The position numbers and the translations under genes are program-made. From Candidatus Magasanikiibacteriota bacterium (lineage in GTDB: Bacteria > Patescibacteriota > Patescibacteriia > Magasanikbacterales > GWA2-37-8), in the NCBI GenBank assembly GCA_963840935.1, contig CAWJAS010000002.1, forward strand, positions 71,333 to 135,332: DNA of 64,000 bases. Reading direction: 5' to 3'. How positions within the stretch are numbered: the stretch's first letter is position 1; the number at the start of each line of letters is the position of its first letter. This document shows positions 13,114-46,990 of the stretch, one piece after another. Under the pieces are notes generated by a model, which did no database searches, was not told the DNA's origin, and saw only the letters and a program-made list of their open reading frames with translations.

Positions 13114-13117
13114 AAGT

Positions 13118-18169: not shown

Positions 18170-18198
18170 ACTTATTTAATTGTTAATAATTTTGATTT

Positions 18199-26756: not shown

Positions 26757-27096
26757 TTATTCAATTGGTGGTTCAGCTGGCGGTTCGGCAACCGGTTCTT
26801 CAGCCGGCGTTGGTTCCTCGACAACCGGCTCTTCCTCGACGACCGGTTCTTCGACAACAGGTTCCTCGACAACCGGCTCCTCTGTTGGCGCGGGTTCCTC
26901 GGATATTGGATCTTCAACCACTGGCTCTTCTGTAATCGGCGACTCTTCTGTCACAGGTTCTTCGACAATCGGTTCGTCCTCTGTCGCCGGTTCCTCTATC
27001 GGTGTCGGTTCTTCGACAACAGGTTCCTCGACAACCGGCTCTTCCGAAGAGGGCTCTTCAATCACCGGTTCTTCCGGAACCGGTTCAGGAACATAG
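26757..27096 (-). repeat. Tandem coding repeat (Pro/Glu/Val-rich EEPVV units) at the 3' end of the giant gene
   Basis: Periodic ggttcttc / gacaaccggctc nucleotide repeats encode ...EEPVVEEPVVEEPTPIEEP.... They generate the Gly/Ser-rich shadow ORF 26656..27096 on the plus strand. Confidence 0.7.
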
Positions 27097-33000: not shown

Positions 33001-36000
33001 GTACTTCCGCCCATCACCGGCATACCATTCCAATATAATTGACCCGAATTATTATAAAGCGCGTAAGCGGTATTTGCCGGAGTACCACTAACAATATTGA
33101 TACCACCGACAACGCTCAAAGCGTTCAATGGCGTGGTGGTGCCAATACCGATAAACCCACTTGAAGCGACAAAAAGAGAGCTTGTCGGCGACCAGGCAGA
33201 TCCATCCCAATAAATAGTTTGACCAGCAAGTGTTCCATAATTTACCGGGGTCAAAATTGTTCCGTTAACCCTGTAATTACCGGTAAGATTAACATCGCCT
33301 TGAACGGTTAACTTGTGCGATGGGGTTGAGGTGCCAATACCAATACGGTCATTTGATCCGTCTACAAATAATAAATTTGAATCACCGGCGCCTTGAACAA
33401 TAAAATTATAATTTCCGCTTGAAGTATTGAACACGGCCCCGCCTTTTACAAGCATTTGGGTATTGAATCCGTCAAGCATCATGACTTTGTTATCAGTGAC
33501 ATTACTTTTTCCGTCTCCGGTATCATTATTTTGGAACGCAAAAATTAGATTGGCGTCAGCTCCGCCTCTGGCAATCGCCCATCCGCGTAAACTTGATGTT
33601 GTGCCGAAATCATTTGTATCACTGTATAAAAACAATGCCGCCCCCGCATCACGACTTCCGCTCATTGCCGATAACTTTGCCCAGCTACTAGTCGCTTGCA
33701 CGCCAAGCATAGTTTGCTCTCCAGCATTATCGTTAATAAACAATAAACCGCTGTTATCATAGTAATCTGACCGATAAGCCAATTTCGGCAATAAAGCTTG
33801 CCCGGTGTCAACTTTAATAATGTCTTGGTCGATATTATCATGCCGGCCGAACAGCACCGTTCCTTCTTCTTCAGCTAAAGCGTAAAAATATACATTATCA
33901 GGATTGTTTATATTAATATCAGCACTAGAAAAAGCTCCATCACTTGAAGAGATGTTAATTGTTGAATCATCATTTTGATCGATATTTAAAGTTAAGGCTT
34001 TTTGAAGATAACTGGCTGTAACTTTTGTAATAGAATTATTATTGCTAACAATATTGTTATCCAACCCCCACATATTCGAATAGCGAATTTCCGCATATGA
34101 ATCATCGCCGGCAATATATAAACCCGTACCACTATCATTATATGAACCAAACTCACTGCCTACCATATAAAATTCCGAGGCTCCCGTAGTACTGTCAACA
34201 TAGGCGTAATAGGTATCTGATTCTTCCATATAAGACGCTTCGATTTGCAGGATGCCACCATTATCAATATATACCCCTGCATTACCAATATCATATAAAT
34301 CCATGTGAAAAGCATCCACGAGGTTTGTAACAGATAAATCAATACCTCGATTAACGCTTAAAATTGATACTCGTTCCAACTCCATCCAATTAACGCCTTC
34401 GCTAGTAATATTTATTGCATCACAACCGGCGGTATTTTTGAATCCTGTGGTATCCGAACCATCGATTGAAAAATTAGACATTGAAAATTTAACAGTGTCA
34501 GTAGTGAAATTAATGTCAAAAACCGGATCTCCGGCAGTCACCAATGAATCACCTGGAACAATCACAACTCCGCTTTGCGAAATACCATGAATACCTTTGA
34601 TTTTTGGATTGGTAATTTCCAAAGTAGAAGTCACTTCGTATTCGCCCGGATAAATATGTATAACAACATCGTATGTTGAAGTATTCGCATAATCAATCGC
34701 GTCCATCAGATTGTCAAAATCCCCGCCTTCTTTGGCAACATTGATGGTGTGATTAATTTTGCCATAAACATCCGCCCAATCACCACCCAAATGTTTAAAT
34801 TGAATCCGACCGTTATTATCTCTAAAACCATAACCTACCGTGCCGGTCGCCGTGTCAAAATTTAAATATCTATCCTCGCCCGACAAAATAATATCGCCAT
34901 AAACATCCAATTTCGCCAATGGTGAAGAAGTACCGATACCTACAAAACCATTAGATTCAATTCTCATTCTCTCAACCGAGGTAGTCGGGCCCTCGTCGCC
35001 ACCGACATAAAAAATTATATTATTAGTATCTCCAACAGCGGCAAGAGCAATGCCCCTCGCCATGTCAAAAGTAGCTAAGGTTAAATAACCAGCCATGTTG
35101 GTATAGCCATCCTGACTAAAATTACTTGAAGGCATCATTAAAGCGCCACTAACATCATCCACTTGCAAAGTTATCATCACCGCTGAACTGGCGCTATTTA
35201 CCGTATTTTCAAATCGAGCTTCCGCCCAATCATCTATACTATGAACAAAATGTAAGGGGGCCAGCGGGGTGGAAGTGCCAATGCCTAAATAACCATTGGT
35301 ATTATCCCAATACAACGAACTTGTTCCTGTAATCGATGAAGCGCTGTCCCAAAAAGAAAGCTGACCGATCGAACCGGAACCGGTCACTCCTCCGATTCCC
35401 GCGGTTAAAGATAACCAACTTGAGCCGATATAACCAATAAAATCAGAACCATCAAAAGCAATGGTTCCGGCGGTCGATGTGGGAGTGGTTGTGGCACCAA
35501 TATTTATTCCACCGGCAACAGTTAGCATTTCAAAAGTTGAACTGGTGCCAATTGCCACTCGTCCGTCATTTTCGATTCGCATTCTTTCTGTGTCCATGGT
35601 CGGCGGACCATAGCCACCGGCATAAAAAATAATATTTCCGCTAGAACCGGCAAGCAAGGCAAGTCCATTGCCACTGGCGCCTGGAAATCCTGAAACTAAA
35701 GCGGTGTATCCGGCTAAATTTGTTAAACCATAATCGTTAAAATTTTCACCCGCGACGCCAATGCCACCACCATAATTGCCAACTTTAAACTGCATCAATT
35801 CAGTCGAACTCGCTCCGTTATTTATATTTTCAAAAGTTACAAGCGGACCATTATAATTTTCATTATGAACCACATGTAAATTATACCCCGGTGTTGTTGT
35901 GCCAATACCTACACGTCCGCCAAAATAATTGGTTGAACTGGCGCCATCCGAATAAATATTAAAATTGGAAGTAGTGGCAAAATTTTGTTCTTCAATGTAT

Positions 36001-37745
36001 AGACCATACAAATTACCAATAGTCCCTGAGGCGCTATTGCTTGTCGGATTATTTATTCTCGCACCATAAGCATTATTAATAAATCCATCGTCAATAGTGA
36101 TGTTTGTCATTAATCCGGCGGCATTTCCAATTGTACCTCCACCTATACCATTTTCAATCATTGCCAAAACACCGGCTGCCATATTTATGGTACCGGAATA
36201 GGCAGAATTCTCTATCCCATTATTCACCTGTCCGGCTGCGCCTACAGCAAAATTTATACTGCCGGTCGCGCTGGCTAATTCCGCGACCGATAAAGAACCA
36301 ACGGCCGCTCCAACAACTCCGGAACCATTGTGTATTGCTTGTAACAATGTTCCAGCGAGCAAATCAAAACTGGTAGTGCTATTTTCATTGGTCGTCAAAG
36401 AGATCAAGGAATTGATAGTGGATGATGAGTCAGCTGTCGGCAACAAATCAACAATAAAGGCGTGCGCAGGAAAAAATTCAAAATTTGAAAGATCTGTGTA
36501 TTGTTTATAGGAAACTAAAATAGGAGCATCGGTTGGGAATAAATAAGCATCACCCAAACGTAAATTACTTGCTGATGTAGTGGCCAATGTGGAAGTGCCT
36601 GTAACAGATAGGTCATTATTAATGGCCAGCGCGCCTGTCATGGTATCCCCCGTAATATTCACCCAATTATCTGTTCCCGTAGCCATAAAACTAGAGCTGG
36701 AAAATCCGCTTCCGAGCAAGCTTGTTCCGTTGAACCAAACAAATTCGTATGGCGAAAAAGATGAGGCATTTGTACCCCCATTGGCAATCGGTAAAACTCC
36801 CGATACATCAGAAGTCAAATCAATGGTAGTAGTGCTCCAAACTCCGGCGGTTAATCTGACAAGACCATCCCAGCCGGAAGTATCCTGACCTGTCCCGCCA
36901 TATGCCGGTGCGATAACCGAGCCATTCCAAGTGCCCGAGGCGATCGTGCCAAAATATGAATTACCAACTACAGTTAAATTGCTCGTCAAATAGAGATTTG
37001 TGCCTGTGGCACTGGTCCAAGAAATATCGGTAAAAGAAGAAGCGCCGGAAATAATCAAATTACTTATTGTGGCAGTGGCAAAAGTGGAATTACCGGAAAC
37101 ATAAAGATTGCCCGCGATACTCGATGTGGCAGTGGTTGATGTTAAATTTATTGATGCGCCTGAATAAACTCCCGCGCCAATATCAAAACTCAAATCATCG
37201 CCAAGTGCCAAGAGCTGACCGGCAGTTGCCGTTGAAGTGGCGTGGAATCCATCCACTCTGTGTGAATTCAAAGCATACGGATGGGCGTTCAATTTAACTC
37301 TGGGGCTTGATTCCGAATTGCTTTCAATTTTCACTCCCAAATAATATGTCCCGCTGGAAAAATCCAGATAACTCGGGAAGCCCGTGCAATCGCCCAAAGT
37401 TAAAGTGAAATATCCTTGTGCGTCTGGCAAAATTTCTGCGCACGCCCCACTGCTTTGGTCATAAGTTTCTTTCCAAAGTAAAGGTCCGTTTTGATCGGGC
37501 GTGTCGCCGGAAGAACCATTTGAGATGTGATTGTAAATTGAAAACTGTATGGTTGTGGAAACGGCAATTGGCGAGCCCAAATTATCACGCAATCTCGCTT
37601 GATAATTTATTGAATTAGGGATGGCGATTGCTTTTTCAGCTAAAAAAAAGATAAGAAAAACAAAAAATAAAAGCAATATTTTTTTTACTTCCTTTACTTT
37701 GTCCTTAAAATTAGGACCAAAATTGTATTTCGCCCTCCAGTGCAT
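26757..37745 (-). CDS. Giant (3662 aa) secreted cell-surface protein
   Basis: An uninterrupted 10,989-nt ORF with a signal peptide/TM at the N-terminus (KKILLLFFVFLIFFLAEKAIA). Many short G-[FRK]-[IV]-GIGT-[ST]-x-P repeats (GNVGIGTTDP, GFVGIGTKTP, GNIGIGTSTP, RIGIGTSTPSHKLTVQGDV, GFIGIGTTTP...) resemble phage tail-fibre / surface-fibre repeats. There are beta-helix-like blocks (NFSIDGSDTTGF...GIDLSVTNL...DLYDIGNAGVYIDNGGILQIEASYMEE), a PPC-like block (GTVTYFDDDGGTGTNSYLAFVYDASSTYNIVVTSYYAGETGAYTLDV) and a C-terminal (P-V/E-E-E-P-V)n low-complexity tail. Confidence 0.8.
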   Translation of the reverse strand: MHWRAKYNFGPNFKDKVKEVKKILLLFFVFLIFFLAEKAIAIPNSINYQARLRDNLGSPIAVSTTIQFSIYNHISNGSSGDTPDQNGPLLWKETYDQSSGACAEILPDAQGYFTLTLGDCTGFPSYLDFSSGTYYLGVKIESNSESSPRVKLNAHPYALNSHRVDGFHATSTATAGQLLALGDDLSFDIGAGVYSGASINLTSTTATSSIAGNLYVSGNSTFATATISNLIISGASSFTDISWTSATGTNLYLTSNLTVVGNSYFGTIASGTWNGSVIAPAYGGTGQDTSGWDGLVRLTAGVWSTTTIDLTSDVSGVLPIANGGTNASSFSPYEFVWFNGTSLLGSGFSSSSFMATGTDNWVNITGDTMTGALAINNDLSVTGTSTLATTSASNLRLGDAYLFPTDAPILVSYKQYTDLSNFEFFPAHAFIVDLLPTADSSSTINSLISLTTNENSTTSFDLLAGTLLQAIHNGSGVVGAAVGSLSVAELASATGSINFAVGAAGQVNNGIENSAYSGTINMAAGVLAMIENGIGGGTIGNAAGLMTNITIDDGFINNAYGARINNPTSNSASGTIGNLYGLYIEEQNFATTSNFNIYSDGASSTNYFGGRVGIGTTTPGYNLHVVHNENYNGPLVTFENINNGASSTELMQFKVGNYGGGIGVAGENFNDYGLTNLAGYTALVSGFPGASGNGLALLAGSSGNIIFYAGGYGPPTMDTERMRIENDGRVAIGTSSTFEMLTVAGGINIGATTTPTSTAGTIAFDGSDFIGYIGSSWLSLTAGIGGVTGSGSIGQLSFWDSASSITGTSSLYWDNTNGYLGIGTSTPLAPLHFVHSIDDWAEARFENTVNSASSAVMITLQVDDVSGALMMPSSNFSQDGYTNMAGYLTLATFDMARGIALAAVGDTNNIIFYVGGDEGPTTSVERMRIESNGFVGIGTSSPLAKLDVYGDIILSGEDRYLNFDTATGTVGYGFRDNNGRIQFKHLGGDWADVYGKINHTINVAKEGGDFDNLMDAIDYANTSTYDVVIHIYPGEYEVTSTLEITNPKIKGIHGISQSGVVIVPGDSLVTAGDPVFDINFTTDTVKFSMSNFSIDGSDTTGFKNTAGCDAINITSEGVNWMELERVSILSVNRGIDLSVTNLVDAFHMDLYDIGNAGVYIDNGGILQIEASYMEESDTYYAYVDSTTGASEFYMVGSEFGSYNDSGTGLYIAGDDSYAEIRYSNMWGLDNNIVSNNNSITKVTASYLQKALTLNIDQNDDSTINISSSDGAFSSADININNPDNVYFYALAEEEGTVLFGRHDNIDQDIIKVDTGQALLPKLAYRSDYYDNSGLLFINDNAGEQTMLGVQATSSWAKLSAMSGSRDAGAALFLYSDTNDFGTTSSLRGWAIARGGADANLIFAFQNNDTGDGKSNVTDNKVMMLDGFNTQMLVKGGAVFNTSSGNYNFIVQGAGDSNLLFVDGSNDRIGIGTSTPSHKLTVQGDVNLTGNYRVNGTILTPVNYGTLAGQTIYWDGSAWSPTSSLFVASSGFIGIGTTTPLNALSVVGGINIVSGTPANTAYALYNNSGQLYWNGMPVMGGSTSTYIQDSDGDTVVSVESSPDEDWIRFMSAGTERMVITNEGKIGIGTSTPGMADPLSYHILDIEFSSNTDSGIRLANLSAGNGASTEMQFFNDAGYGGTIVLTGSNFAGFPNADSVFGIAASGGNDLFMASLGGDIRMMTQNNLLYGSSSLFIQGSGANEGFVGINTSNPLSQLDVYGNIMLSAIDPYINFGTTTASSGFGFRVNNGLVEVKHLNNNQNVWSEIITLVALTEGNTIYVSDTSGKDNFDGTSPAKAKKTIAAGIAAASSSATMEDPYLVVIAPGTYNENVVMADYMKVQGSGCNTIINGKVTFDMATGSALADIDVKNTNDYAVEMTGSGQATLKNVIAEATFTNDAAVQAVVYVDNGTFESSGQSEFKLTRSNNAAGVRVNTAFYISGSNLVRANIFGADNVITTYDGTDDLSLVYVDNTNSGSVITIKDPIITFPIYSFAPANSIKIVYHNSASANTYLDAGFVTGITIAAGSANVFPAYITNSGASSGARITHTSFSWAGAGFADSNVFLGAATDDNDNIVLVSNHFNTTADVFPIRYDTAGASGTLDYFIENGHGNLQNTAFSTYDGSFGIGTSTPYDRLEIWGDDLSSSPTSSRNYITIVANGNGEAGNYIRRVNSGSYDNGWSWYMPTSSLDLRLWDDSIGAEGDDVFTIQAGTGHVGIGTALYEPLNLLHVDGGLYLGDTATATSTYSLYNSAGDLYWNGNLLASAGGATANWQLVSHNGLDVLTTSSTLPVWFKDIIFASSSLYVDGVASLATTTMTLASANYLVVANSVTTTDLVATGYITLGGVARNTWPSGGGGDSSWATTTASVLYPSLIPPYAVVVGGSVTSSDVIFEVVGDSYMSGDLEVGGSLTIDENFQADYFTAVSTTAISYLGGGMVLGDPSATGITGYERIILSDDIGAFSDFSFKVAGNGYPMFNLGSSGGTTAVPALTANNNNLGGLDFYGYDGSAWQKAGGIIGQADGTPALNSMPGKIVFSTTPNGSTTALERMAIDSRGWVGMGTTTPSAPLHVVTATSGPAMTILQKTIAGATNLNFVTNNNRYWQLSKRDATQDDKFIFYYVNDSGLFTNILTLGATGTVGINNENPNAMLTISGTSTYPLLNIMTSSSATGMYISNIGNVGIGTTDPNYFKLRVYDEDNNVSAEVKTASSSKVALFNLKAGGDTNVLQLGYYGSTTPGFAGIPPDSAVFDAVAPGGAYIINEASGAPIVFMTDGWQASNERMRITSDGFVGIGTKTPSTTLSVNGTSTMKNVVPASSLAYDLGNFERNWNRVWATLYNINNQNSLAAIKSTASFGPTSTSINGSLDITDPDNPNRTGRYMDAYNIATIFPGIPNGSSMTVSLTSVAFDAYLQVVSDTGTVTYFDDDGGTGTNSYLAFVYDASSTYNIVVTSYYAGETGAYTLDVTAVNSPVDAGLAFYDTINGGGNNLLTMLNSGNIGIGTSTPNSVLTIYSDKEEMASIISSSTGQTLLEAKNLSQNFGMSLETGALIQRNAYFGEEFMRNRANIGADTNWAWGDFQQFTTDENTVCTWSNINNEVNGIGRQQAGAGSSCLAYYASALATAHNVFNVNNLPVILSKIRPSADSATALFWVGIGDRAQAQTTDPTNGIYFTNNTATGDWRGVTRRAGASTNVECTGQTVNNTVFAVTKIEVVSSNGDGTGSVKFYVDNDTSNGIDWTYCGESTTNVPTVGLTALLMNYSTALHYLDIDYWRVWQDDSSEPLGPPALVFEEEEEVEEELTIEERVAILEEFDTNITDDFELITDSVDVLDVSLSETQAMLDELSGRVSILENNDILADQSIVDLSNMMTDFDLRLSELASSSAGLQLIDEVFESLTANILVIYDSAIFNGTLTAKKHVTFGEDTVGQGMILAGHASTTVIFAEPYEIAPIINITPIDFDGKWKLSEVSTSGFKIMLSEIQSVDVLFNWQAIGASTDSKVFVSDGTVNLIGLQIDYVPEPVPEEPVIEEPSSEEPVVEEPVVEEPTPIEEPATEDEPIVEEPVTEESPITEEPVVEDPISEEPAPTEEPVVEEPVVEEPVVEEEPVVEEPTPAEEPVAEPPAEPPIE

Positions 37746-37846
37746 AAAATTGTATCTTTATTATAGCACAAAATTGAATTTATTTGTTGCTATTAAAATA
37801 AAAAACTGTGGATAAAATCCACAGCTCAAAAAAACTAAAAAAAGAA

Positions 37847-38566
37847 TCAAGGATTGACGAGTGCGGTTATAGTAATCATGCCGGAATATACCCCTGTCAT
37901 TTGTGACACTGGGGCTGAAACACGATAACCGATAACAGTATTAGACAAGCCAAAATTACATGAGGCACAATTCATAAATTGTTGCATTAACAATGGAAAA
38001 CCGGCATATTTTGCGGTTCCCGAAGTGTCGCTTGCTCCCCACCAAGCACTATCGTAATATGAATCGGAGCCGGTTTGCCAAACTCTAAAACTCAAATTAT
38101 CACCCGGCGAACTGGTGGCATTGCCGGAACCCGTCGGATTCCAATCAATCTCATCCGGAAAAGCAACATCCGGAGAAGACGAGCCATTCATGTTCAAAGT
38201 CGAAGTGGTGTCTTCGCGATTTACTGATAAATTATAGCCATTATAAGCGCCGACCATATCAACTGTGGCTGTTGAAAAAGCGAATGAAGGCACAAGCGGA
38301 ACAATAATACCAAAATCAACGCTGGTTGCAATAGTTAACGTCATCATTCCAAATTCAATAACAAGACCGTGATCCAAAATAAAATTTGAACTGGCGGAAC
38401 GGCCTACCGCCGGGTCGCCAACACCGCCCTTTATTTCAAAACCGGATGATGTGGCGTCGTGATATGTGGAATTGTAAACTTCCCTATCGGCGGTATTTGC
38501 GTGAGCTATTGATACGGTCAATAAAAAAATAATTCCTACTATCAAAAAATATCTTTTATGAAACAT
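37847..38566 (-). CDS. Secreted protein (239 aa), paralog of 38723..39355. Possibly WxL-like, low confidence
   Basis: A signal peptide. It shares TSTLNxNG(S/T)S(S/T)PDVxFPD..........GxNLSFR...TG(S/T)D and a C-terminal SGVYxGxITxTAxxNP with its divergently transcribed neighbour. Confidence 0.5.
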   Translation of the reverse strand: MFHKRYFLIVGIIFLLTVSIAHANTADREVYNSTYHDATSSGFEIKGGVGDPAVGRSASSNFILDHGLVIEFGMMTLTIATSVDFGIIVPLVPSFAFSTATVDMVGAYNGYNLSVNREDTTSTLNMNGSSSPDVAFPDEIDWNPTGSGNATSSPGDNLSFRVWQTGSDSYYDSAWWGASDTSGTAKYAGFPLLMQQFMNCASCNFGLSNTVIGYRVSAPVSQMTGVYSGMITITALVNP

Positions 38567-38722
38567 ATATCTTTATTATACCTAAAAATAGATGTAACAA
38601 CAAATAAGCTACAATTTTAATTAACTGTGGATAACTTTAACAATGATAAATATCATTATTTATGCTATAATTAAATTGGATTATATTTAATTATTCTATT
38701 AATTAATTTTATATACAATACT

Positions 38723-39355
38723 ATGAGGAGGATACTCTCATCATTAGTGTTAGTCGCGTTATTTTGCGCAACAATTGGCATTTTGGGTTTAGCCAACCTA
38801 AAACCGGCGATTGCCGCAAGCGATTCTGACACTCAAACAATTATCTTGACGGTTACGTCAACGATAACTTTAACTTTGGCTACCACTACCGTGAATATGG
38901 GTACTCTAACCCCGGGAGTGCCAATTTTTGCCGGTACTTCATTAACGGTTACGACCAATGATTACAACGGTTGGAATTTGCAAGTAAGAAGAGATGACGC
39001 CACTTCAACGCTTAATTTGAACGGAACCTCAACACCTGATGTTACTTTTCCGGACGCCACTGCTTGGACTTATGCCACGCCAAATTCGAGCGCCACTCCG
39101 GGAGCTAATTTATCTTTCAGATTAATGGATACAGGTACTGACGTGGCTTTGGTTTCAACCACTCTTTGGGGCGCGGATGCAGGCACAAAACTTTGGGCCG
39201 GTTTCCCAACATCCAACCAACAGGTAACTGGAATTGGCAGTTATGTGGGCGCAACGCAAAATGTTGCCTATGAATTCAGAGCCGATGCTCCGGGAACTCA
39301 GCAGTCTGGTGTTTATTACGGCGATATTACCTTTACCGCGATTACAAATCCATAA
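38723..39355 (+). CDS. Secreted protein (210 aa), paralog of 37847..38566
   Basis: Signal peptide MRRILSSLVLVALFCATIGILGLA. The conserved blocks are listed under the 37847..38566 paralog. Confidence 0.5.
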   Translation: MRRILSSLVLVALFCATIGILGLANLKPAIAASDSDTQTIILTVTSTITLTLATTTVNMGTLTPGVPIFAGTSLTVTTNDYNGWNLQVRRDDATSTLNLNGTSTPDVTFPDATAWTYATPNSSATPGANLSFRLMDTGTDVALVSTTLWGADAGTKLWAGFPTSNQQVTGIGSYVGATQNVAYEFRADAPGTQQSGVYYGDITFTAITNP

Positions 39356-39364
39356 TTTAATTTT

Positions 39365-40312
39365 ATGCGGAGAGCAAAACTCACAATCGGCATTGCCCTC
39401 CTTTTAGCCGGAATAATTAGTTTAGTAAAAATAGAAGCTGCCTTTGCGCAGCTTTCTATTTCTACTTACCCACTTTCGGTTAAAGGGCAAATAGACCCAG
39501 GACAAACATTCGAGGGAACGGTCAATATTATTAATTCAAGCGAAAATGAATCAGTAAAAATTCGTTTGGAAAAAGAAAATTTAATGGGGGGAGCCGAGGG
39601 GGCGGTTGAACTCTTAGGGGAAGTTGATACGGGCTGGGGAATTTCTTCCTGGGTCAAATTTGAAGATGATAGTGATTTTATTTTAGAACCCAAAGAAAGA
39701 CGAGCTGTTAATTTTTCAATTGAAGTGCCTCTTGACGCTCAACCGGGCGGACATTTTGGCGCCGTACTTTTCCGAGCTTTACCCGCGGATGAAAAAGAAA
39801 ATACCGAAAGTGGCATAAGCGTCAGTGGAAGAGTCGGGTCTGTACTTTTGTTTGAAGTAACTGGGGACATAAACAAAGGCGCTCACATATCATGGATTGA
39901 TGTGCCAAAGTTTTTGAGCCATGGTCCGGTTGATGTTAGATTCAAATTAAAAAATGATGGTAATTCATATTTCACGCCCATTGGTAATGTTACGTACAAA
40001 AATCTTTGGATGAAAAATGAAGCAGAATTTTATAATCCCGGAAAAGCTGAAACTGATTTAAACAAGCCGGGAGTAGTATTCCCCGGTTATGACCGAACAT
40101 ACGCATCAAAATGGGACAAAAAATACATGTTCGGCCCTGTCAAAATTACTATTAACGCTCAAATGGAGGAAGGTGGCCCGGAAATCGCTTCAAAATCAAT
40201 TATTATCTGGGTTTTCCCATGGCAAGAAGCTTTAATTATTTTGGCGGTAATTTTGTTGTTATGGATCATTACCAGGGCATTTAAAACCAAATACAAAATT
40301 GTTAAAGTTTAA
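39365..40312 (+). CDS. Cell-surface protein with N-terminal signal peptide and C-terminal transmembrane anchor (315 aa)
   Basis: Signal peptide, beta-rich body, and a C-terminal ALIILAVILLLWIITRAFKTKYKIVKV anchor. The architecture resembles DUF916-type anchored proteins of WxL loci, but that link is an inference. Confidence 0.5.
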   Translation: MRRAKLTIGIALLLAGIISLVKIEAAFAQLSISTYPLSVKGQIDPGQTFEGTVNIINSSENESVKIRLEKENLMGGAEGAVELLGEVDTGWGISSWVKFEDDSDFILEPKERRAVNFSIEVPLDAQPGGHFGAVLFRALPADEKENTESGISVSGRVGSVLLFEVTGDINKGAHISWIDVPKFLSHGPVDVRFKLKNDGNSYFTPIGNVTYKNLWMKNEAEFYNPGKAETDLNKPGVVFPGYDRTYASKWDKKYMFGPVKITINAQMEEGGPEIASKSIIIWVFPWQEALIILAVILLLWIITRAFKTKYKIVKV

Positions 40313-40331
40313 CACGGCCGACACAATAATC

Positions 40332-41348
40332 ATGAAAAAATTAATCAGTATTTTTTCAAATTTTATTGAAATGCGGATTTTAGTTTACATCGGCATTTTT
40401 ATTGTTGGCATTGTTTTGCCAATTGCTGTGTTTGGTGTTACTTCACAACAAAATATAAATATCCAAGTCAGTTCATCAGTTCCATATAACCATTGTGTTG
40501 ACGGAATAAAAAACTACGATGAAACCGGCGTGGATTGCGGGGGTACCATGTGTTCCGCTTGTAGCGGAGGTGGAGGCGGGGGCGGAGGTGGAGGCGGAAT
40601 TACACTCTATTCTTCGGTCGCTTTTTCTGGAAAAACTGCTCCCGGTTCATCAGTAAAAATTCTTAAAGGTGGAATTTTAACCTCAAGTGTTTTATCAAAT
40701 CTTAACGGTGATTTTTCTGCTTCTATCAGATATCTTACCGCAGGAACATACAATTTTATAATATATTATGAGGATGCAACGGGTAAAAAAAGCGCCTCTG
40801 TAACTTTTAATATAACTGTCAACCAAAATCAAAATATTACTATAAATAATATTTTACTACCGCCAACTTTATCTATTGATAAGACGCAAATAAAAGAGAA
40901 CGAAACAATTAAAATATTTGGCCAAAGTGCGCCAAATTCTCAAATCACGATTTATCTTACGCCTTTGATCGGAAACCCGACGACAACCCTTAACACTAAC
41001 GCTAATCAAATCGGGGTGTATGAATATCTTTTTAACGGCCAATTACAATTAGGCCAATACGCGGTCAAAGCAAAAGCAAAACTCGGGGAACTGACAAGCG
41101 AATATTCTTTACTTCAAAATTTTTCCGTCGGAACTTCAACCATAGAAAAACCCACAGGCATTTGCCCACAAAAAGGCGACGTTAATTATGATTGCCGAGT
41201 CAACTTAGTTGATTTTTCAATTACCGCTTATTGGTTCAGACGAACAATTAGTCCTGAATTTATTATTATTGAAAATGACCAATTAAGCGGGGACAGTAAG
41301 ATAGACTTGGTTGATTTTTCTATTCTCGCTTATTATTGGACCGGTTAA
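40332..41348 (+). CDS. Membrane-anchored protein with poly-Gly linker and a C-terminal dockerin-like duplicated Ca-binding repeat
   Basis: An N-terminal TM and a G11 run (40561..40600). The C-terminus carries two dockerin-type segments, GDVNYDCRVNLVDFSITAYWF and GDSKIDLVDFSILAYYW. The start is taken at MKKLISIF (40332). Confidence 0.55.
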   Translation: MKKLISIFSNFIEMRILVYIGIFIVGIVLPIAVFGVTSQQNINIQVSSSVPYNHCVDGIKNYDETGVDCGGTMCSACSGGGGGGGGGGGITLYSSVAFSGKTAPGSSVKILKGGILTSSVLSNLNGDFSASIRYLTAGTYNFIIYYEDATGKKSASVTFNITVNQNQNITINNILLPPTLSIDKTQIKENETIKIFGQSAPNSQITIYLTPLIGNPTTTLNTNANQIGVYEYLFNGQLQLGQYAVKAKAKLGELTSEYSLLQNFSVGTSTIEKPTGICPQKGDVNYDCRVNLVDFSITAYWFRRTISPEFIIIENDQLSGDSKIDLVDFSILAYYWTG

Positions 41349-41352
41349 AAAT

Positions 41353-42252
41353 ATGAAAAAATCTTTTTTATTTTTTGTTTTTATAATTTCCGCTTTATTA
41401 TTTTTTTCAACCCCCGCGAAAGCGGCTGATTTTTTATTTAATCCTCATAATATTGAGATTAGCAGAAATGATGAAATAAAAATTGATTTTTTTGTTGACG
41501 CTAATGAAAATCCCATAAACGCCATAAGCGGACAACTTATTATACCGACTGATTATATTTTTATTAAAAATATTATTATCGGCGAAAGCGGTGTTAATTT
41601 ATGGATTGAGAAACCGGAACTGAATAATAATATTATTAATTTTTCCGGTATTGTACCGAACGGTTTTGTCGGCAAAATTAATATTTTTTCCTTCATAATA
41701 AAGGCAAAAAAAATTGGTATTGTTCAAATTGACCAGAGTAATTTTCGCGCTCTTATTAATAACGGCATCGGTACCGATGATAATGTAGACGCCCCAAAAC
41801 TCACCATCAACATAATCCAGGAAACCGCTGAAATACCGACCGAAATTATTTTGGAAGATACGGAACCGCCGGATATTTTTCAAATTGAAATTATAAAGGA
41901 CGACCTTTTGTTTGATGGGAAATATGCCTTAATTTTTCATACCGAAGATAAGCAAAGTGGCATTAGTCATTATAAAATTTTGGAGCAAAGACAGTATGAA
42001 TTTTTTGGGATTAAATACCGCTTCGGCCAATGGAAAACGGCAAACAGTCCATATTTACTCAGCGACCAAAAATTAAAAAGTTTAATAAAAGTTGTCGCTA
42101 TTGATAATCTTAACAATGAACGGGATTCTCTTTTACCCGCAATGAATCCAATAAAATGGTATGAAAATATTATTTTTTGGAGTATAATATTAATAACGCT
42201 GTTTTTTGGCGTGATATTTTGCATATATGTTAAACGGAGGGTTAAAAAATAA
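41353..42252 (+). CDS. Cohesin-like domain protein with C-terminal TM anchor
   Basis: A signal peptide (MKKSFLFFVFIISALLFFSTPAKA), then a ~140-aa beta-sandwich segment (NIEISRNDEIKIDFFVDANENPINAISGQLIIPTDYIF...FSGIVPNGFVGKINIFSFIIKAKKIGIVQID) of cohesin type, and a C-terminal hydrophobic anchor. Confidence 0.45.
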   Translation: MKKSFLFFVFIISALLFFSTPAKAADFLFNPHNIEISRNDEIKIDFFVDANENPINAISGQLIIPTDYIFIKNIIIGESGVNLWIEKPELNNNIINFSGIVPNGFVGKINIFSFIIKAKKIGIVQIDQSNFRALINNGIGTDDNVDAPKLTINIIQETAEIPTEIILEDTEPPDIFQIEIIKDDLLFDGKYALIFHTEDKQSGISHYKILEQRQYEFFGIKYRFGQWKTANSPYLLSDQKLKSLIKVVAIDNLNNERDSLLPAMNPIKWYENIIFWSIILITLFFGVIFCIYVKRRVKK

Positions 42253-43069
42253 AGTGCTATTATTTAGTATTTTTTTCTTGGGATTGTTCTTTTTTGTTAC
42301 GGAAGCCAAATCGGCTACGCTGTATTTTTCACCGGCTTCTCCTACTTACACCATAGGAGATTCTTTCCAAGTCAGTCTTTTTGTGTCTTCCGCCGACCAA
42401 GCAATGAACGCGGCTCAAGCCACCATTAATTATCCGACCGACAAATTGGAAATGATTTCCGTTTCCACAAAAAACTCTATTTTCTCTTTAATGGTGGAAA
42501 ACCCGGTTTTTTCGAATGTTAACGGCTCGGCCTCTTTCTCTGGTATTGTCTTGAATCCGGGCTATTCGGGAAAAAGCGGACGGTTGGTAACGCTTAATTT
42601 ACGTGCAAAAGCATTGGGCCAAGCCAATCTTTCCGTTTCAAGCGCCCAGGTGCTTGCCAATGACGGCCTTGGCACAAATATATTAACTTCTCGCGGAGGT
42701 GGCACTGTTACTATTATTGAAAAAAAAGTTGCCCCGGAACCGCCAAAACCAATTCCATTGCCCGAACCGACAATTTATATTCCAACCACTACCATAACCA
42801 CAACCGTCCCAGAGGAGCCAACAACCGAAATAACTCCGATAGTTAACATTGTTACTTCAACCGTCTGTTCGGTTGACCAACTGCCTTACGTATTTTTAAA
42901 AATCGGCCCTCTCACTTTTGACTCCGCTTCCCTTTCACTTTTATTTTTAATTATCATGATTTTAGTTGCCGGAATAATATCATTTTGGGGATTTTTTGAA
43001 GCCTACTTTAGTCGCCAGATTGATAAAAAGAGATTAAAAAAATCAACAACTAAAAAAACAAAAAAATAA
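42227..43069 (+). CDS. Cohesin-like domain protein with Pro/Thr linker and C-terminal TM anchor
   Basis: A signal peptide, then TLYFSPASPTYTIGDSFQVSLFVSSADQAMNAAQATINYPTDKLEMISVS...SGIVLNPGYSGKSGRLVTLNLRAKALGQANLSV (cohesin-like), a PEPPKPIPLPEP..TTTITTTVPEEPTTE linker, a TM and a basic tail. Confidence 0.5.
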   Translation: MLNGGLKNKVLLFSIFFLGLFFFVTEAKSATLYFSPASPTYTIGDSFQVSLFVSSADQAMNAAQATINYPTDKLEMISVSTKNSIFSLMVENPVFSNVNGSASFSGIVLNPGYSGKSGRLVTLNLRAKALGQANLSVSSAQVLANDGLGTNILTSRGGGTVTIIEKKVAPEPPKPIPLPEPTIYIPTTTITTTVPEEPTTEITPIVNIVTSTVCSVDQLPYVFLKIGPLTFDSASLSLLFLIIMILVAGIISFWGFFEAYFSRQIDKKRLKKSTTKKTKK

Positions 43070-43072
43070 AAT

Positions 43073-44044
43073 ATGCCAAAATCAATTTACAGAGAATCAG
43101 TCAAAGAGGCATGGAAACTTGTCAGAAAAAACACAACGCTTTGGCTACTGGGCTTGCTTTCCGCGCTTTTTGCAGGTTCATTTGGCTTAAGTAGCTTTTT
43201 TTCGCAATTAATTACCATAATGGGGTCTAATGCAAACGCCAACGGCCCTTTAATAACTCGATTTAACTGGCCCGAACTGGGAGCTTCCGGACTGTATTCC
43301 ACTATTTGGACAATTTGGCTAATCGGCATAATGCTCGTACTATTTGGCGCGGTTATTTACATCTCTGTTATTGCCAAAACATCTCTTCTTATCGCTATCG
43401 CCGATTTTTACAAAAAGAAAACCGAACCGAAACTAACAAAAATCTGGAATACGGGTCTTAAATATTTTTGGCGTATTTTCGCCATTGAAACAATCAGAAA
43501 AATCTCTTTATTTGCAATCGTAATTATATTCGGTTTGATTTGGTATTATTTTCCATTTTATGAAGGAACGGTCAACTTATTAATAAGCATCACCGCTTTG
43601 ATAATAGTTGTGGCGCTTGGCTGGGTAATTTCGGCATTATCAATTTTTACCGCCGGCTACACGGTAATTGATAATAAATCCCCTGTTAAAGCTTTAAAAA
43701 AAGCCTGGCAATTATTTCACGAGCATCTTTTGGTTTCTTTTGAAATTAGTGCTATTCTCACATTAATCGACCTGGCGCTTGTGGCGATTTTTGCCGCTTT
43801 AATTTCTTACGCCTTTATTCCTTCCATTTTTATTTGGATTATCGCCGGAGTTTTTTCTTCGCCTTTTATCGCCATACTCGGAACTTTAGTCGGACTCGTA
43901 ATCACCATCATTGTTATTGCTTTATTCGGCGCGATTTACAACACATTCTATACGAGTGTCTGGATGCATATGTTTATGAAAATGCATCATGAAGGAATTT
44001 TCTCTCGCTTAATTCATCATGTTCAAGGGTTTTTCAAAAAATAA
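43073..44044 (+). CDS. Polytopic integral membrane protein (323 aa), function unknown
   Basis: Six or more predicted TM helices. No catalytic motif. Confidence 0.5.
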   Translation: MPKSIYRESVKEAWKLVRKNTTLWLLGLLSALFAGSFGLSSFFSQLITIMGSNANANGPLITRFNWPELGASGLYSTIWTIWLIGIMLVLFGAVIYISVIAKTSLLIAIADFYKKKTEPKLTKIWNTGLKYFWRIFAIETIRKISLFAIVIIFGLIWYYFPFYEGTVNLLISITALIIVVALGWVISALSIFTAGYTVIDNKSPVKALKKAWQLFHEHLLVSFEISAILTLIDLALVAIFAALISYAFIPSIFIWIIAGVFSSPFIAILGTLVGLVITIIVIALFGAIYNTFYTSVWMHMFMKMHHEGIFSRLIHHVQGFFKK

Positions 44045-44046
44045 TT

Positions 44047-45756
44047 ATGACTGATTTCCCATCAATTTCCGATTTGCTAAAAAAATCCGGCACTGCGCCG
44101 TCAGGCACGCCAACAACGCAAGAAAAATTCGATGCAAAAATTCGAGAAATTGACATAAAATCCAAAGAAGAAGAAACCGCGTCGCGCGCTGTTACGTTAA
44201 ATTTGCCATATATTTCACTCTCCGGTTTCCCGATTTCCGCTGAATCTCTCAAGGTTATTAGCGAAAAGGACGCTCGTGAAAAAAAGACGATTTGTTTTTA
44301 TTTTACTCCAGATGATTTGCGTATCGGCGTAATGGAATTAACGCCGGAAATCGAAGAATTTGCCTACCAAATCGGCGAACGACACCACGCAAAAGCGCAA
44401 ATTTATTTAATTTCCGAGCACTCGCTTGACTCGGCGTTGAAACTTTACGCCACTTTGCCAATCATTAAACCAATATCCAAAGAAATTAACATTACCGATG
44501 AAGAATTGAGCCGTTTCCAAGAAGGAATAGAAAATTTACAAGCTTTAGAGGGGATGTTCAAAAATATTTCCATCACCGATATTTTAACTTTGATGATTGC
44601 GGCCGCGCTCAAAACCAATTCTTCAGACATTCATGTTGAAGCCGAAGATAAAGGCATCGCCGTGCGCTATCGCATCGATGGCGTTCTTCACGAAGTATCA
44701 AACCTACCAAAAGATCAATGGAAAAAATTTGTTTCGCGTATCAAACTTTTGGCCGGATTAAAAATCAACATTACCGACAAACCGCAAGACGGTCGAGTGA
44801 CATTACGCTTGGAATCCGGCTCGCTCGACGTTCGTGTTTCCACCATGCCAACCACCTATGGCGAATCAATTGTGATGAGAATTTTACATAGTGGGTCAAA
44901 AGGAGTGACATACGACAATTTGGGACTCCGCGGAGAAGCCTATGAACGATTGCGCCGAGAAGTTGAACGGCCAAACGGCATGATTATTACCACCGGTCCG
45001 ACCGGTTCCGGTAAAACCACCACATTGTACGCGATTTTGCGCACACTTAACAAACCGGGTGTAAAAATTATTACTTTGGAAGACCCGGTGGAAATTAAAA
45101 TGGAAGGTATTAACCAAAGTCAGGTTGACCCGAGCCATGATTACACTTTTGCAAAAGGTCTGCGCTCAATTCTGCGCCAAGACCCTGATATTTGTATGGT
45201 CGGCGAAATCCGTGATTTGGAAACCGCGGAAATCGCCATTCAAGCCGCTTTAACCGGCCATTTGATGCTTTCAACCATTCATACCAACTCAGCCTCTGGC
45301 GCCATCCCCCGCTTTTTATCCATGGGGGTAAAGCCATTTTTGCTTGCTCCGGCACTCAACGCCATCATCGGCCAGCGCTTGGTCAGGCGTATTTGCGAAC
45401 ATTGCATTGAAGAAGATAATTTGGACAGTGAAAAAATGGAGCGAGTAATGAACTTATTAAACACTCTACCGGAGGCTGAAAGAAACAAAGTTGATTTAAA
45501 TAATTTAAAATTTTATAAAGGCGCCGGTTGCCCCAAATGCTCGGGGCTTGGCTACAAAGGGCGAATCGGAATTTACGAAATCTTTACCATGAATAAAGAA
45601 ATCGAACAGATAATATTGAGTGCCCAAGTATCTGAATATACTATCCAAGAAATCGCCGTCAAAAACGGTATGGTAACAATGGCCCAAGATGGCATTTTAA
45701 AAGCACTCGATAAAATAACGAGCATTGCCGAAGTATTTGATGTGGCCGATGAATAA
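44047..45756 (+). CDS. pilB: Type IV pilus assembly ATPase PilB (GspE/PilB secretion ATPase family)
   Basis: 569 aa. Walker A GPTGSGKTTTLYA, Asp box, Walker B/His box region and a tetracysteine zinc motif CEHC...CPKC, the diagnostic PilB/GspE architecture. Confidence 0.9.
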   Translation: MTDFPSISDLLKKSGTAPSGTPTTQEKFDAKIREIDIKSKEEETASRAVTLNLPYISLSGFPISAESLKVISEKDAREKKTICFYFTPDDLRIGVMELTPEIEEFAYQIGERHHAKAQIYLISEHSLDSALKLYATLPIIKPISKEINITDEELSRFQEGIENLQALEGMFKNISITDILTLMIAAALKTNSSDIHVEAEDKGIAVRYRIDGVLHEVSNLPKDQWKKFVSRIKLLAGLKINITDKPQDGRVTLRLESGSLDVRVSTMPTTYGESIVMRILHSGSKGVTYDNLGLRGEAYERLRREVERPNGMIITTGPTGSGKTTTLYAILRTLNKPGVKIITLEDPVEIKMEGINQSQVDPSHDYTFAKGLRSILRQDPDICMVGEIRDLETAEIAIQAALTGHLMLSTIHTNSASGAIPRFLSMGVKPFLLAPALNAIIGQRLVRRICEHCIEEDNLDSEKMERVMNLLNTLPEAERNKVDLNNLKFYKGAGCPKCSGLGYKGRIGIYEIFTMNKEIEQIILSAQVSEYTIQEIAVKNGMVTMAQDGILKALDKITSIAEVFDVADE

Positions 45757-45797
45757 TGTGATATAATATAAATAGAATAAAACGCTAAAATAAACAT

Positions 45798-46946
45798 ATG
45801 ATAACTCACCGCTTGCAAACTCAAACAATACCGGAACCACCGGTAAAAGTATATCGCATTATTGCTTTGACTTTTCTTTTAATAACCGTTGTTCTTTTGG
45901 GTATTGTTATTTTCACCATGCTCAAAAAAACGGAAATTACGATTGTTGCCAAAGAAGATTCAAAAACAGTTAATTTTATTGTGACAGCTGAAGCGGAAAA
46001 AAATTCAGATAAATCGCTTTCGTCCATTGTCACCTCCACGGAATTTTATTGGTCGGAAAAATACACGCCCACAGCCACCAAAGAAGTTGACGGCACTGCT
46101 AAAGGTGAGGTCATTATTTATAACAAATTAAGCGAGGCGCAAACTTTGGTCAAAACCACTCGCCTGCTCACGCCCGACAATAAATTATTCCGCTTGAACG
46201 ACCGAGTGACTATTCCCGCCGGCGGGCAAATCACGGCCGAAGTTTATGCTGATGAGGGCGGTGCATCTTTTGATATTGGGCCTTCGCAATTCACTATTCC
46301 CGGACTTTCTCTTGAACGACAAAAGTTTGTTTATGCTGAAAGTGAGAAACCGATGAGTGGTGGCTCCGGCAAAGTGGGAGTGGTGTCCGAGGCCGATTAC
46401 AAAGCGGGTGAAACTGATTTTGCCAACAAAACAAAAGATGAATTTTTGAAAAATTTTGAAGAGAGTCACACCGGACTTGACCAAAAAATTGTGGCCGTAA
46501 CGCAGAGCCGAGCGACTTCATCGCATGCCATCGGGTCAGAAACAAGTGAATTTAAAATCTCCGGCACGAGCACTCTGATTATTATTTTTTACAATGAAAA
46601 TGATTTAAGCGATTTGATAAAAAAAGAAGTTGAAAAAAGCGTAGACATGAATTCGGAAAAAATTGTTTCTATTGGCAGTGAACCAAAGTTAGAAATTGCC
46701 GCCATTGATCCGTCAAATAAATCAGCGCAAATTCAAATCAGCACGGAAGCGATAATGACCCTTGATGCCAACGCGCCAATGCTAAACAAAGAAAACTTTT
46801 TGAACAAACAAAAAGGAGAGATTGAAAGATACATTGTTTCGCTCCCTCATGTGACGGGAATGGAAATCAAATTCACACCAAGCTGGGTGAGCAAAACCCC
46901 GAGCGTGGCGGATAAATTAAAGATTTTGGTGAAGAGTGTAAAATGA
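45798..46946 (+). CDS. Membrane-anchored hypothetical protein (382 aa), possibly pilus-associated by context
   Basis: An N-terminal TM (IIALTFLLITVVLLGIVIFTML) then a soluble domain. It is co-oriented with, and 41 bp downstream of, pilB. Confidence 0.4.
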   Translation: MITHRLQTQTIPEPPVKVYRIIALTFLLITVVLLGIVIFTMLKKTEITIVAKEDSKTVNFIVTAEAEKNSDKSLSSIVTSTEFYWSEKYTPTATKEVDGTAKGEVIIYNKLSEAQTLVKTTRLLTPDNKLFRLNDRVTIPAGGQITAEVYADEGGASFDIGPSQFTIPGLSLERQKFVYAESEKPMSGGSGKVGVVSEADYKAGETDFANKTKDEFLKNFEESHTGLDQKIVAVTQSRATSSHAIGSETSEFKISGTSTLIIIFYNENDLSDLIKKEVEKSVDMNSEKIVSIGSEPKLEIAAIDPSNKSAQIQISTEAIMTLDANAPMLNKENFLNKQKGEIERYIVSLPHVTGMEIKFTPSWVSKTPSVADKLKILVKSVK

Positions 46947-46955: not shown

Positions 46956-46990
46956 AAAAAACCCGCCAGTTGTGACTGGCGGGTTTTTTT
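46956..46990. terminator. Bidirectional Rho-independent terminator
   Basis: aaaaaacccgccagt-tgtg-actggcgggtttttttt between convergent genes. Confidence 0.75.

Follow-up and report, generated by a model that had tools for sequence, protein, structure and literature searches.

What holds together a row of surface-protein genes that stands next to a type IV pilus ATPase gene in a bacterium of the Candidate Phyla Radiation (CPR)? The question is raised by a stretch of 64,000 nucleotides from a Candidatus Magasanikiibacteriota bacterium (contig CAWJAS010000002.1, positions 71,333 to 135,332), hereafter the window, in which positions 37847-46946 encode secreted, dockerin-bearing and cohesin-bearing proteins followed by the ATPase PilB. 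CPR bacteria are believed to rely on attaching physically to their hosts' cells, and most of their surface proteins are annotated as "hypothetical". A sequence-only reading of the window had arranged the block in three layers and proposed a surface-adhesion complex associated with the pilus gene. Adhesion is still considered a plausible role, but synteny across CPR loci does not support the grouping with the pilus gene, and it yields two units in place of three layers: a cassette of a giant protein and genes A to F, and a separate trio of G, PilB and I. The cassette is proposed to be a strand-complementation display or fibre system with a cohesin-dockerin membrane anchor that displays large adhesins for host attachment, a reading held with some confidence though well short of certainty.

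Nine open reading frames (ORFs), A to I, had been described by the sequence-only reading, and their positions and topologies are borne out by the ORF list and by hydropathy. A (37847-38566, minus strand) is a secreted, PamT-like protein of 239 aa with a pilin-like domain, here called A-type. B (38723-39355, plus strand, as are C to I) is a pilin-like subunit of 210 aa, consisting of a signal peptide, an N-terminal extension and the domain, and C (39365-40312) is a WxLIP/PapD/RbmA-like, membrane-anchored chaperone or anchor. D (40332-41348, with an alternative TTG start at 40299) carries a signal peptide, a short strand, a Cys-rich module, a glycine run, two immunoglobulin (Ig)-like domains and a C-terminal dockerin; E (41353-42252) and F (42227-43069) are the cohesin proteins. 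G (43073-44044) is a polytopic membrane protein, H (44047-45756) is the PilB-type ATPase and I (45798-46946) is a 382-aa protein anchored at its N-terminus. Directly downstream of A, on the minus strand, an ORF for a giant secreted protein of 3662 aa occupies 26757-37745. Hydropathy gives a signal-like N-terminal segment in A and B, an N-terminal signal with a C-terminal transmembrane (TM) helix in C, E and F, an N-terminal hydrophobic segment only in D, at least five TM segments in G and one N-terminal TM segment in I.

Gene order was compared in two sets of loci. All window proteins were searched by tblastn against 64 PilB-centred loci, and further contigs were fetched from database homologues of C and B and their order checked by tblastn; the sample was thus reached through homologues of C, B and PilB and is not a random sample of genomes. 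Several taxonomic labels of the metagenome-assembled genomes (MAGs) are unreliable, many Magasanikbacteria-like contigs being titled "uncultured Gammaproteobacteria". The order large protein-B-C-D-E-F is kept in 13 independent loci (the window, L001, L065, L067, L068 and L070-L077), with the same order and strand in the eleven beyond the window and its closest relative, L001. Such an arrangement lies far beyond chance, being shared by 13 deeply diverged loci in which identity falls to about 26% for C and about 30% for B. In most of the eleven further loci the upstream large protein (447 to 1876 aa) itself ends in an A-type domain, while in the window, L001 and L065 A is a free-standing 239-aa protein next to the giant gene. 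The architecture of a WxL-type cluster, a WxLIP-like gene with adjacent small and large partners, is present in all 13.

PilB follows another pattern. H is a full-length PilB/GspE ATPase (T2SSE, E 3e-122; TIGR02538, 478 bits), 66-83% identical to PilB in about 57 loci from Candidatus Magasanikbacteria / Magasanikiibacteriota MAGs, and it adjoins the cassette in the window and L001 only; within the 8-10 kb examined in the other 11 of the 13 cassette loci, G, PilB and I were not found. Conversely, A, B and C occur in just one of the 64 PilB-centred loci, again L001. The G-PilB-I trio is found in about 50 Magasanikbacteria loci regardless of the cassette (identities 27-59% for G and 41-70% for I), with ThrRS, FtsH and ribosomal protein S1 as its usual flanks; in L003 and L055 ThrRS abuts G. 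The cassette also decays, D-E-F or F alone being present without intact B-C in L049, L052 and L002: L052 has D-E-F and lacks B and C, and L002 keeps only F (8179-9009), upstream of G-PilB-I. Since 13 loci preserve the cassette and PilB is near it in two, the real unit is the giant protein with A, B, C, D, E and F (26757-43069), and PilB is separate. On this evidence PilB appears to be a neighbour acquired in one sub-lineage, and G-PilB-I a separate unit that merely abuts the cassette. The descriptions of G as polytopic, of H as PilB and of I as anchored were correct. G and I match no Pfam or NCBIfam family, and I matches no PDB sequence. A family scan of window ORFs of at least 120 aa found no PilC, PilM/N/O, prepilin peptidase or pilin, so that of a type IV pilus the window shares only the ATPase, whose kept partners are G and I and which is not co-inherited with the cassette; the link to a type IV pilus drawn by the sequence-only reading is not supported.

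A and B are, as had been stated, divergently transcribed paralogues (44% identity over 158 aa, E 6e-38). The A protein begins with the motif S-x-[FY]-x-[IL]...DPAVGR...SSN[FY], followed at residues ~75-239 by the A-type domain, which has a Cys pair. The N-terminus of the D orthologue in L052 (1091-2281) bears this motif of A as S-x-NY-x-I ... DPAVGR ... SSNYVLEH. An exact-sequence look-up of the window's A protein returned no record, and the 44 database homologues of B are all from CPR bacteria and all "hypothetical". A profile search of 1.84 billion representatives showed that at least 599 clusters carry the A/B domain, 272 of them at E<=1e-10. Among the best 150 of the 599, the domain ends at most 6 residues from the C-terminus in 149; 64 are small (signal peptide plus domain) and 86 are large, up to 3773 aa. 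Such a division into small and large proteins with a common C-terminal module is a signature of WxL clusters (PMC10599100), and the large proteins with a C-terminal A/B domain parallel the chaperone-usher tip adhesins, which have a C-terminal pilin domain.

Sequence models of the CPR Pam pili give these proteins weak matches. A and two orthologues match NCBIfam NF058579, CPR_pilus_PamT, at E 1e-4 to 8e-7 (21.9-28.7 bits, cut-off 240), and NF058581, CPR_Pam_pilin_C, matches 22 of 41 B-family members (best E 1.9e-5; cut-off 55 bits), the highest bit score seen in the B family being 21.4 (E 2.1e-4). The matches are thus repeated and mostly below E 0.01, yet under the curated cut-offs. Pfam has no family for the A/B domain; the only matches, all insignificant, were to the pilin- or adhesin-type families DUF4402, Dr adhesin and SCPU. 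An AlphaFold2 monomer model of B (predicted local distance difference test, pLDDT, 86.6) has one beta-sandwich after an unstructured N-terminal segment, and its top Foldseek matches in the PDB are CfaB, FimA/FimI, the TasA fibre, CsuA/B, the PapG and CsuE pilin domains and archaeal cannulae, that is, nearly all donor-strand fibre subunits, with probability up to 1.0. The N-terminal extension of B, which like that of other small forms directly follows the signal peptide, contains a conserved amphipathic segment, QTIILTVTST, at residues 38-47 (38834-38863), in which Q38, T39, V44 and T47 are at least 90% conserved. This extension is coil in the monomer model, where the first strand comprises residues 48-52. 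The alternating positions of the B-type extension are hydrophobic in 81/69/80% of the small forms vs 49/43/56% of the large, and the amphipathic extension of B is absent from A-type and large forms. Segment 38-47 has the look expected of an N-terminal donor strand and is a candidate for that role.

C links the cassette to the WxL-interacting proteins. Its score on DUF916/WxLIP_PGBD (PF06030) is 15.9 bits vs a gathering score of 27.3, and the family as a whole is matched: all 25 aligned C-family members match DUF916 at E<=0.1, the best at 8.4e-9. C has 26 database homologues, two with a precomputed PF06030 match, and one is named "DUF916 domain-containing protein" by NCBI; among the homologues found here that carry a name, it alone is not called "hypothetical". 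DUF3324 was matched neither by C nor by 25 family members at E<=0.1. The predicted structure of C (pLDDT 80.8) consists of a signal helix, Ig-like domains at 38-140 and 156-283 and a TM helix at 286-309. In Foldseek searches of the PDB it matches Vibrio cholerae RbmA (1.8e-9), the Enterococcus faecium WxLIP chain 9i25_C ("bound to long WxL") and 9i1y (E 4.3e-9, TM-scores 0.38-0.46; both entries released in 2026), and the chaperones FimC, CsuC, PapD, Caf1M and SafB (1e-7 to 1e-6). In Pam pili, PamC, PamD and PamR each have a C-terminal TM helix; PamC and PamD resemble FimC/PapD, and PamR resembles RbmA, has one more strand at its N-terminus and is the proposed pilus terminator and anchor (bioRxiv 10.64898/2026.03.03.709456); judged by its model, C could correspond to either the PamC/PamD or the PamR class. 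The N-terminal "AQLSISxYP" of C was considered as a PamR-like donor strand and dropped as unproven, as it fits an ordinary PapD/MSP-like first strand (l-x-i-x-P-x-x-l-x-f). The short, basic cytoplasmic tail after the TM helix (40283-40312, residues ~307-315), F-K-K-K-F-K-I-V-K-V, is strongly conserved in most of the divergent loci examined, which might mean that it is bound by a partner in the cytoplasm or acts in sorting. The proposal that A, B and C resemble WxL and DUF916 loci is therefore supported for C, by its relation to a divergent DUF916 family and by its predicted fold, and for the cluster architecture; it is not supported for the Pfam membership of A and B.

The dockerin assignment of D rests on its C-terminus, which holds a duplicated calcium-loop repeat (GDVNYDCRVNLVDFSITAYWF ... 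SGDSKIDLVDFSILAYYWTG). A dockerin is taken here to have two D-x-[ND]-x-D-x-x-[VI]-[ND]-x-x-D calcium loops, each followed by a helix, and D has both, in two tandem repeats of about 22 residues, GDVNYDCRVNLVDFSITAYWF and SGDSKIDLVDFSILAYYW, the second loop being shortened in the window's protein. The module covers residues 281-338 (41172-41348) and ends in ...AYYWTG; orthologous dockerins end in YYWTG or a close variant. Against Dockerin_1 (PF00404) the window's D scores 13.7 bits (E 0.076, positions 1-52 of 57) under a gathering score of 22.9, while its orthologues, over the same C-terminal module, score 16.8, 17.4 and 30.8 bits, the last of which passes. In eight aligned orthologues the dockerin is nearly invariant (D283 N285 D287 N291 D294 ... 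D321 D328) and the remainder is about 40% identical. The loop motif of D is the only one across the six frames of the window. The glycine run noted earlier in D is exactly 11 residues long (residues 79-89; 40566-40598), and at least seven of these glycines are invariant in the eight aligned orthologues. D also has a Big_13 match of 30.1 bits.

Comparison of 15 D orthologues shows what the protein retains when reduced. Most have a short amphipathic strand after the signal peptide, then a linker that is flexible or rich in Cys, and at the C-terminus a dockerin; the strand is QQNINIQVS in the window (residues 39-47; 40446-40472), with QNINIQV, QTIQIRL, QTLRIEV and SLTVTV among the variants, and the linkers are poly-Gly or Pro/Thr-rich. 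In a few orthologues, for example L071:1531-2418, the strand is unclear or absent. The Ig-like domains are optional, being missing in L073 (164 aa), L067 (186 aa) and L070 (~150 aa). The L073 protein is only strand, PT linker (followed by a short GGG run) and dockerin; the minimal forms of L067 and L070 also have a small Cys-rich module before the linker, which is acidic or PT-rich in place of the Gly run. The strand of D resembles the extension of B from the same genome, as in L077 (B GVTLSVTV, D FSLTVTV), a likeness that was not counted as covariation because it reduces to about two clades.

Both anchored proteins downstream of D are cohesin-like, as had been proposed. F consists of a signal peptide, a cohesin (Pfam 43-146), a Pro/Thr-rich stalk, a TM helix at 235-253 and a basic tail; it passes Pfam Cohesin (PF00963) with 27.3 bits vs a gathering score of 24.1, and its orthologues score 36.8, 31.0 and 25.4 bits. 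The stalk is variable, and elsewhere is Ig-like (Big_13) in proteins of up to 692 aa. E has a signal peptide, a cohesin at ~24-160, an Ig-like domain at ~170-265, a C-terminal TM helix at 273-291 and a basic tail. It has no direct Pfam match and is homologous to F over about 160 aa (BLASTP E 7e-17), and a profile of eleven E orthologues matches solved scaffoldin cohesins of Ruminococcus flavefaciens (5aoz, 6.5e-6; 5m2o, 8.9e-5; 5m2s, 1.3e-3). Profile searches thus match both the cohesin and the dockerin families, and the absence of such matches, which the sequence-only reading had named as grounds for refutation, was not observed. Phmmer searches of D and F against the PDB gave only artefacts, Gly11 matching single-chain variable fragment (scFv) linkers and the TM helix matching MgtS/YneM. 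In two loci (L068, 12104-13444; L072, 4909-6297) the product at the E position is 446-462 aa long with a PDDEXK_3 nuclease-like domain before the cohesin, which may reflect a small inserted gene or a mis-called start. Because D is inherited together with E and F in 13 loci, and in view of cohesin-dockerin biology, docking of D on E and/or F would be the simplest interpretation.

In the remaining member, the giant protein, a "tail-fibre-like" repeat, G-[FIV]-[VI]-G-[IM]-G-T-x-x-P or, in a shorter form, G-[IV]-G-T-x-x-P, occurs more than a dozen times; the protein also contains an acidic segment resembling a coiled coil and ends in a tail of about 130 aa rich in Pro and Glu. In L001, L052 and L065 the N-terminal part of the giant is likewise conserved beside A. 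Pfam (E<=0.01) gave no family for the giant, nor for the large proteins that stand upstream in L067 and L068. Its position suggests that it is probably the cargo or adhesin of the cassette.

Starting from the observed domain identities, topologies, family sizes and gene order, a mechanism can be proposed in which all cassette parts would be exported by Sec. The A/B-type domain would have an Ig-like pilin fold that is incomplete by itself and is made whole by a partner's strand, as in chaperone-usher, Pam and WxL-WxLIP systems. By analogy with those systems, C would bind A/B-type domains at the membrane as assembly chaperone or anchor, and either supply the complementing strand or prime its exchange. 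B would join the A-type domain of an adhesin, and perhaps further copies of B, through its N-terminal extension. The dockerin of D would then bind the cohesin of E and/or F in a calcium-dependent manner, fastening the assembly to the membrane on a stalk, and the large adhesins so displayed would serve the attachment of host-dependent cells. That the N-terminal strand of D caps B or A, that B polymerises and that the giant is the displayed adhesin are offered purely as hypotheses. Because a minimal D is little beyond strand, linker and dockerin, D might be a pure adaptor, its strand plugging the open groove of the last B, or of the A-type domain in a giant adhesin, in the manner of the terminator subunits of chaperone-usher and Pam pili, and its dockerin locking onto E/F; this extension is tentative, and we hold it with more doubt than belief.

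Several findings weigh against the proposed display system. The sequence-only reading saw WxL-like C-termini in A and B; B does have one nearly invariant literal G-W-x-L motif, its C-terminus reading ITFTAITNP, but Pfam WxL is matched by neither A, B nor 41 family members at E<=1, and a profile of the A/B family matched no PDB sequence, the WxL chain of 9i25 included. The scores on the Pam models (22-29 bits vs 240 and 55) are far below the NCBI cut-offs. No NCBIfam model matches C at E<=10, so there is no direct sequence tie to PamC, PamD or PamR. The structures predicted are those of the C and B monomers, and the fold matches of B are weak (E 1.4e-3 to 5e-2, TM-scores 0.4-0.57). Strand donation and dockerin-cohesin pairing are suggested by domain logic and co-inheritance. 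In the window the giant is without an A-type domain, A being a separate gene upstream with its own hairpin. Finally, B to I are possibly one transcript, and there may be a lineage-specific functional tie to PilB.

That last point is the substance of the alternative in which the cohesin-dockerin proteins and the WxL-like trio act with PilB in a type IV pilus-based host-attachment apparatus. It draws on the same-strand arrangement with gaps of 2-41 bp from F through I and no terminator-like site before 46956, an arrangement shared with L001, the closest relative. Gene order elsewhere appears largely to refute it, PilB being near the cassette in two of 13 loci, G-PilB-I occurring in about 50 Magasanikbacteria loci without a cassette and often with ThrRS or FtsH abutting G, the trio remaining intact in L052 and L002 while the cassette decays, and no PilC, PilM, PilD or pilin gene being found among the window's scanned ORFs of at least 120 aa; we regard it as very improbable. 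Lower still stands a cellulosome-like complex that binds or degrades polysaccharide, to which we give hardly any credence. The sequence-only reading had called the block unrelated, in sequence terms, to a cellulosome, which calls for qualification at the level of modules, since these belong to the same cohesin and dockerin families and scaffoldin cohesins of R. flavefaciens are the best solved relatives that E has. In none of the 13 loci, however, does the cassette include a glycoside hydrolase, a carbohydrate-binding module or any further enzyme domain. Firmicute WxL (csc) clusters reportedly have a link to the binding of plant polysaccharides (PMC9026416), but the window has a single dockerin protein, and the non-dockerin part of D is Ig-like or absent.

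Two further alternatives dispute how the cassette works. Possibly two independent systems, not physically joined, are co-inherited, a WxL/WxLIP-like trio with C as a stable anchor and a separate cohesin-dockerin display by a D that donates no strand. The Firmicute WxLIP-WxL complex is indeed stable without cohesin or dockerin (PMC10599100; PDB 9i25), D-E-F or F alone persists without intact B-C in L049, L052 and L002, and D's N-terminal strand, a short one, is not strictly conserved. Set against this are the fixed B-C-D-E-F order in 13 loci, with D always immediately after C, the minimal D without Ig-like domains, which leaves little or no obvious cargo to display, and the resemblance of the D strand to the same-genome B extension, seen in about two clades and not counted as covariation; on balance two systems seem unlikely, though worth serious thought. 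The same degree of doubt attaches to a bona fide long Pam-type pilus, as in Candidatus Mycosynbacter amalyticus, in which B would polymerise head-to-tail by donor-strand exchange with A as tip and C as chaperone. This would account for the match of A to PamT and of the B family to the Pam pilin C-domain model, for the candidate donor strand in B, for a chaperone-like, membrane-anchored C and for a tail-fibre-like giant neighbour, also reported in pam operons (bioRxiv 10.64898/2026.03.03.709456). It fits poorly with A and B being single-domain, the candidate donor of B lying at its N-terminus, where PamA, PamB and PamE have two domains and donate an inter-domain linker; with scores far under the family cut-offs; with one chaperone-like gene and no PamR-like gene unless it is C; and with the family's prevailing form, a domain that tags the C-terminus of large proteins, which suits an attachment module better than a major pilin.

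How the proposed display system relates to known ones can be stated system by system. Pam pili of CPR bacteria are put together through donor-strand exchange using membrane-anchored chaperones and an RbmA-like membrane-anchored terminator, have a tail-fibre-like neighbour, and are built of pilins with a nine-strand N-terminal domain, a donor linker strand and a truncated Ig C-terminal domain (Troman et al., bioRxiv 10.64898/2026.03.03.709456). The cassette likewise is a CPR system, apparently Sec-dependent and without usher, with truncated Ig-like subunits, a PapD/RbmA-like two-domain protein with a C-terminal TM helix and a tail-fibre-like giant beside it. It differs in that A and B are single-domain, without the nine-strand domain or linker strand, that C is the one chaperone/anchor-like gene, and that one dockerin and two cohesin proteins are added; it occurs in Magasanikbacteria, Minisyncoccia and Paceibacterota, whereas Pam is found in Saccharimonadia and Microgenomatia. 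The Pam preprint mentions neither WxL/DUF916 nor cohesin/dockerin (bioRxiv 10.64898/2026.03.03.709456).

With the WxL/WxLIP systems of Lactobacillales and Bacillales the cassette shares a membrane-anchored two-Ig DUF916-related protein with small and large partners that have a common C-terminal domain, C matching DUF916 family-wide and the solved WxLIP fold, and B having the G-W-x-L motif. CscD, a small LPXTG protein, is typical of the Firmicute WxL clusters. The canonical cluster comprises one WxLIP with a small and a large WxL protein, a strand of the WxLIP being predicted to complete the WxL sandwich (PMC10599100). The cassette departs from this in lacking Pfam WxL in A and B, where assignment to the class takes two W-x-L motifs, and DUF3324 in C; in a B model that is chaperone-usher pilin-like with an N-terminal extension; in belonging to CPR bacteria, not Firmicutes; and in its added D-E-F. 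Chaperone-usher systems (Fim, Pap, Csu, CFA/I) offer counterparts in the pilin-like fold of B, the chaperone-like fold of C, the amphipathic extension of small subunits and the large proteins with a C-terminal pilin-like domain, as in FimH and PapG. Here, by contrast, there is no outer membrane, C is tethered to the membrane, sequence similarity is not detectable, cohesin-dockerin anchoring is proposed, and no ORF or Pfam match for an usher was found in the window or the cassette loci. As for cellulosomal and non-cellulosomal cohesin-dockerin systems, F is over the Pfam threshold, E is matched by profile, D has the duplicated calcium loop with helix, and the cohesins are cell-bound like anchoring scaffoldins; the cassette is unlike them in anchoring by a C-terminal TM helix, not by SLH or sortase, in its one dockerin protein and lack of enzymes, and in its genetic coupling to a pilin/chaperone-like module. 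Because the scores fall short of the curated thresholds for PamT, the Pam pilin C domain and WxL, and DUF3324, two-domain pilins and an usher are missing, the cassette was not filed as a member of the Pam, WxL or chaperone-usher systems. It works like a hybrid of WxL/WxLIP architecture, Pam/chaperone-usher folds in B and C, and an anchoring cohesin-dockerin pair.

Regulatory signals and other genes of the window complete the picture. The best promoter-like site of the A/B divergent intergenic region (38567-38722) lies at 38643-38671 on the plus strand, a consensus match only, with 10 of 12 positions and an extended -10 TG. A hairpin with a T-run lies just downstream of A (37803-37827). From B to I the genes are tightly packed (3 bp between F and G, 2 bp between G and H, 41 bp between H and I), and the sole strong terminator-like site is a bidirectional hairpin between I and the convergent ftsH (46956-46989; 15-bp stem, 7 GC pairs), with none before 46956; co-transcription of G-PilB-I with the cassette is thus possible in this window and would be lineage-specific. 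An Rfam scan of the window returned four tRNAs and nothing else.

Three loci encode T4SS_pilin (TrbC/VirB2-like) proteins less than 10 kb from the cassette: L068 (17809-20894) and L076 (14933-15963) have them downstream, and in L072 (9175-9978) a peptidase gene comes between them and the cassette; in L068 a DsbA/thioredoxin-like gene stands two genes beyond. A comparable pair in the window consists of a protein of 500 aa that matches T4SS_pilin weakly (2158-3660) and a DsbA-like gene adjoining it (3650-4492). A second cell-envelope locus of the window spans 10553-20106, where a Bac_transf sugar transferase is accompanied by three glycosyltransferases of the GT4 family, a DUF4012 protein of 857 aa and a surface protein with DUF11. 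DNA gyrase subunit A appears to be divided between two ORFs about 140 bp apart, the N-terminal DNA_topoisoIV domain at 51533-52882 (449 aa) and the C-terminal beta-propeller at 53023-53823 (266 aa); the split may be genuine, or it may stem from a frameshift or an insertion. At 55700-57050 there is a high-GC island, up to 68% GC in 300-bp windows vs a background of about 40%, with overlapping ORFs on both strands. The most protein-like of these (56499-56990, minus strand) encodes a product of 163 aa that has a CxxC motif and a tail rich in Lys and Ala. Pfam gave no match for 56457-57047 (plus strand) and NusB for 57531-58001 (plus strand), and no Rfam family was found in the island, which is possibly a foreign insertion or an assembly chimera.

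In summary, a literature search on cohesin and dockerin in CPR/Patescibacteria found no published description of the cassette, and its analysis provides a testable role for six hypothetical gene families and for at least 599 clusters with an A/B-type C-terminal domain, many of them giant. If the proposed display system is correct, it would extend Pam-type logic to other CPR classes and connect it to the Firmicute WxL/WxLIP clusters, and would offer a non-cellulosomal, genetically fixed setting in which to study a cohesin-dockerin pair. Should D in addition prove to be an adaptor, the cassette would attach a strand-complementation fibre or adhesin to a cell without an outer membrane in a manner not described before, the cohesin-dockerin pair would be integral to a pilus-like assembly line, and WxL/WxLIP, CPR Pam and chaperone-usher pili would form one usher-less strand-complementation family. 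The A/B-type C-terminal domain could mark candidate host-attachment adhesins in CPR genomes.

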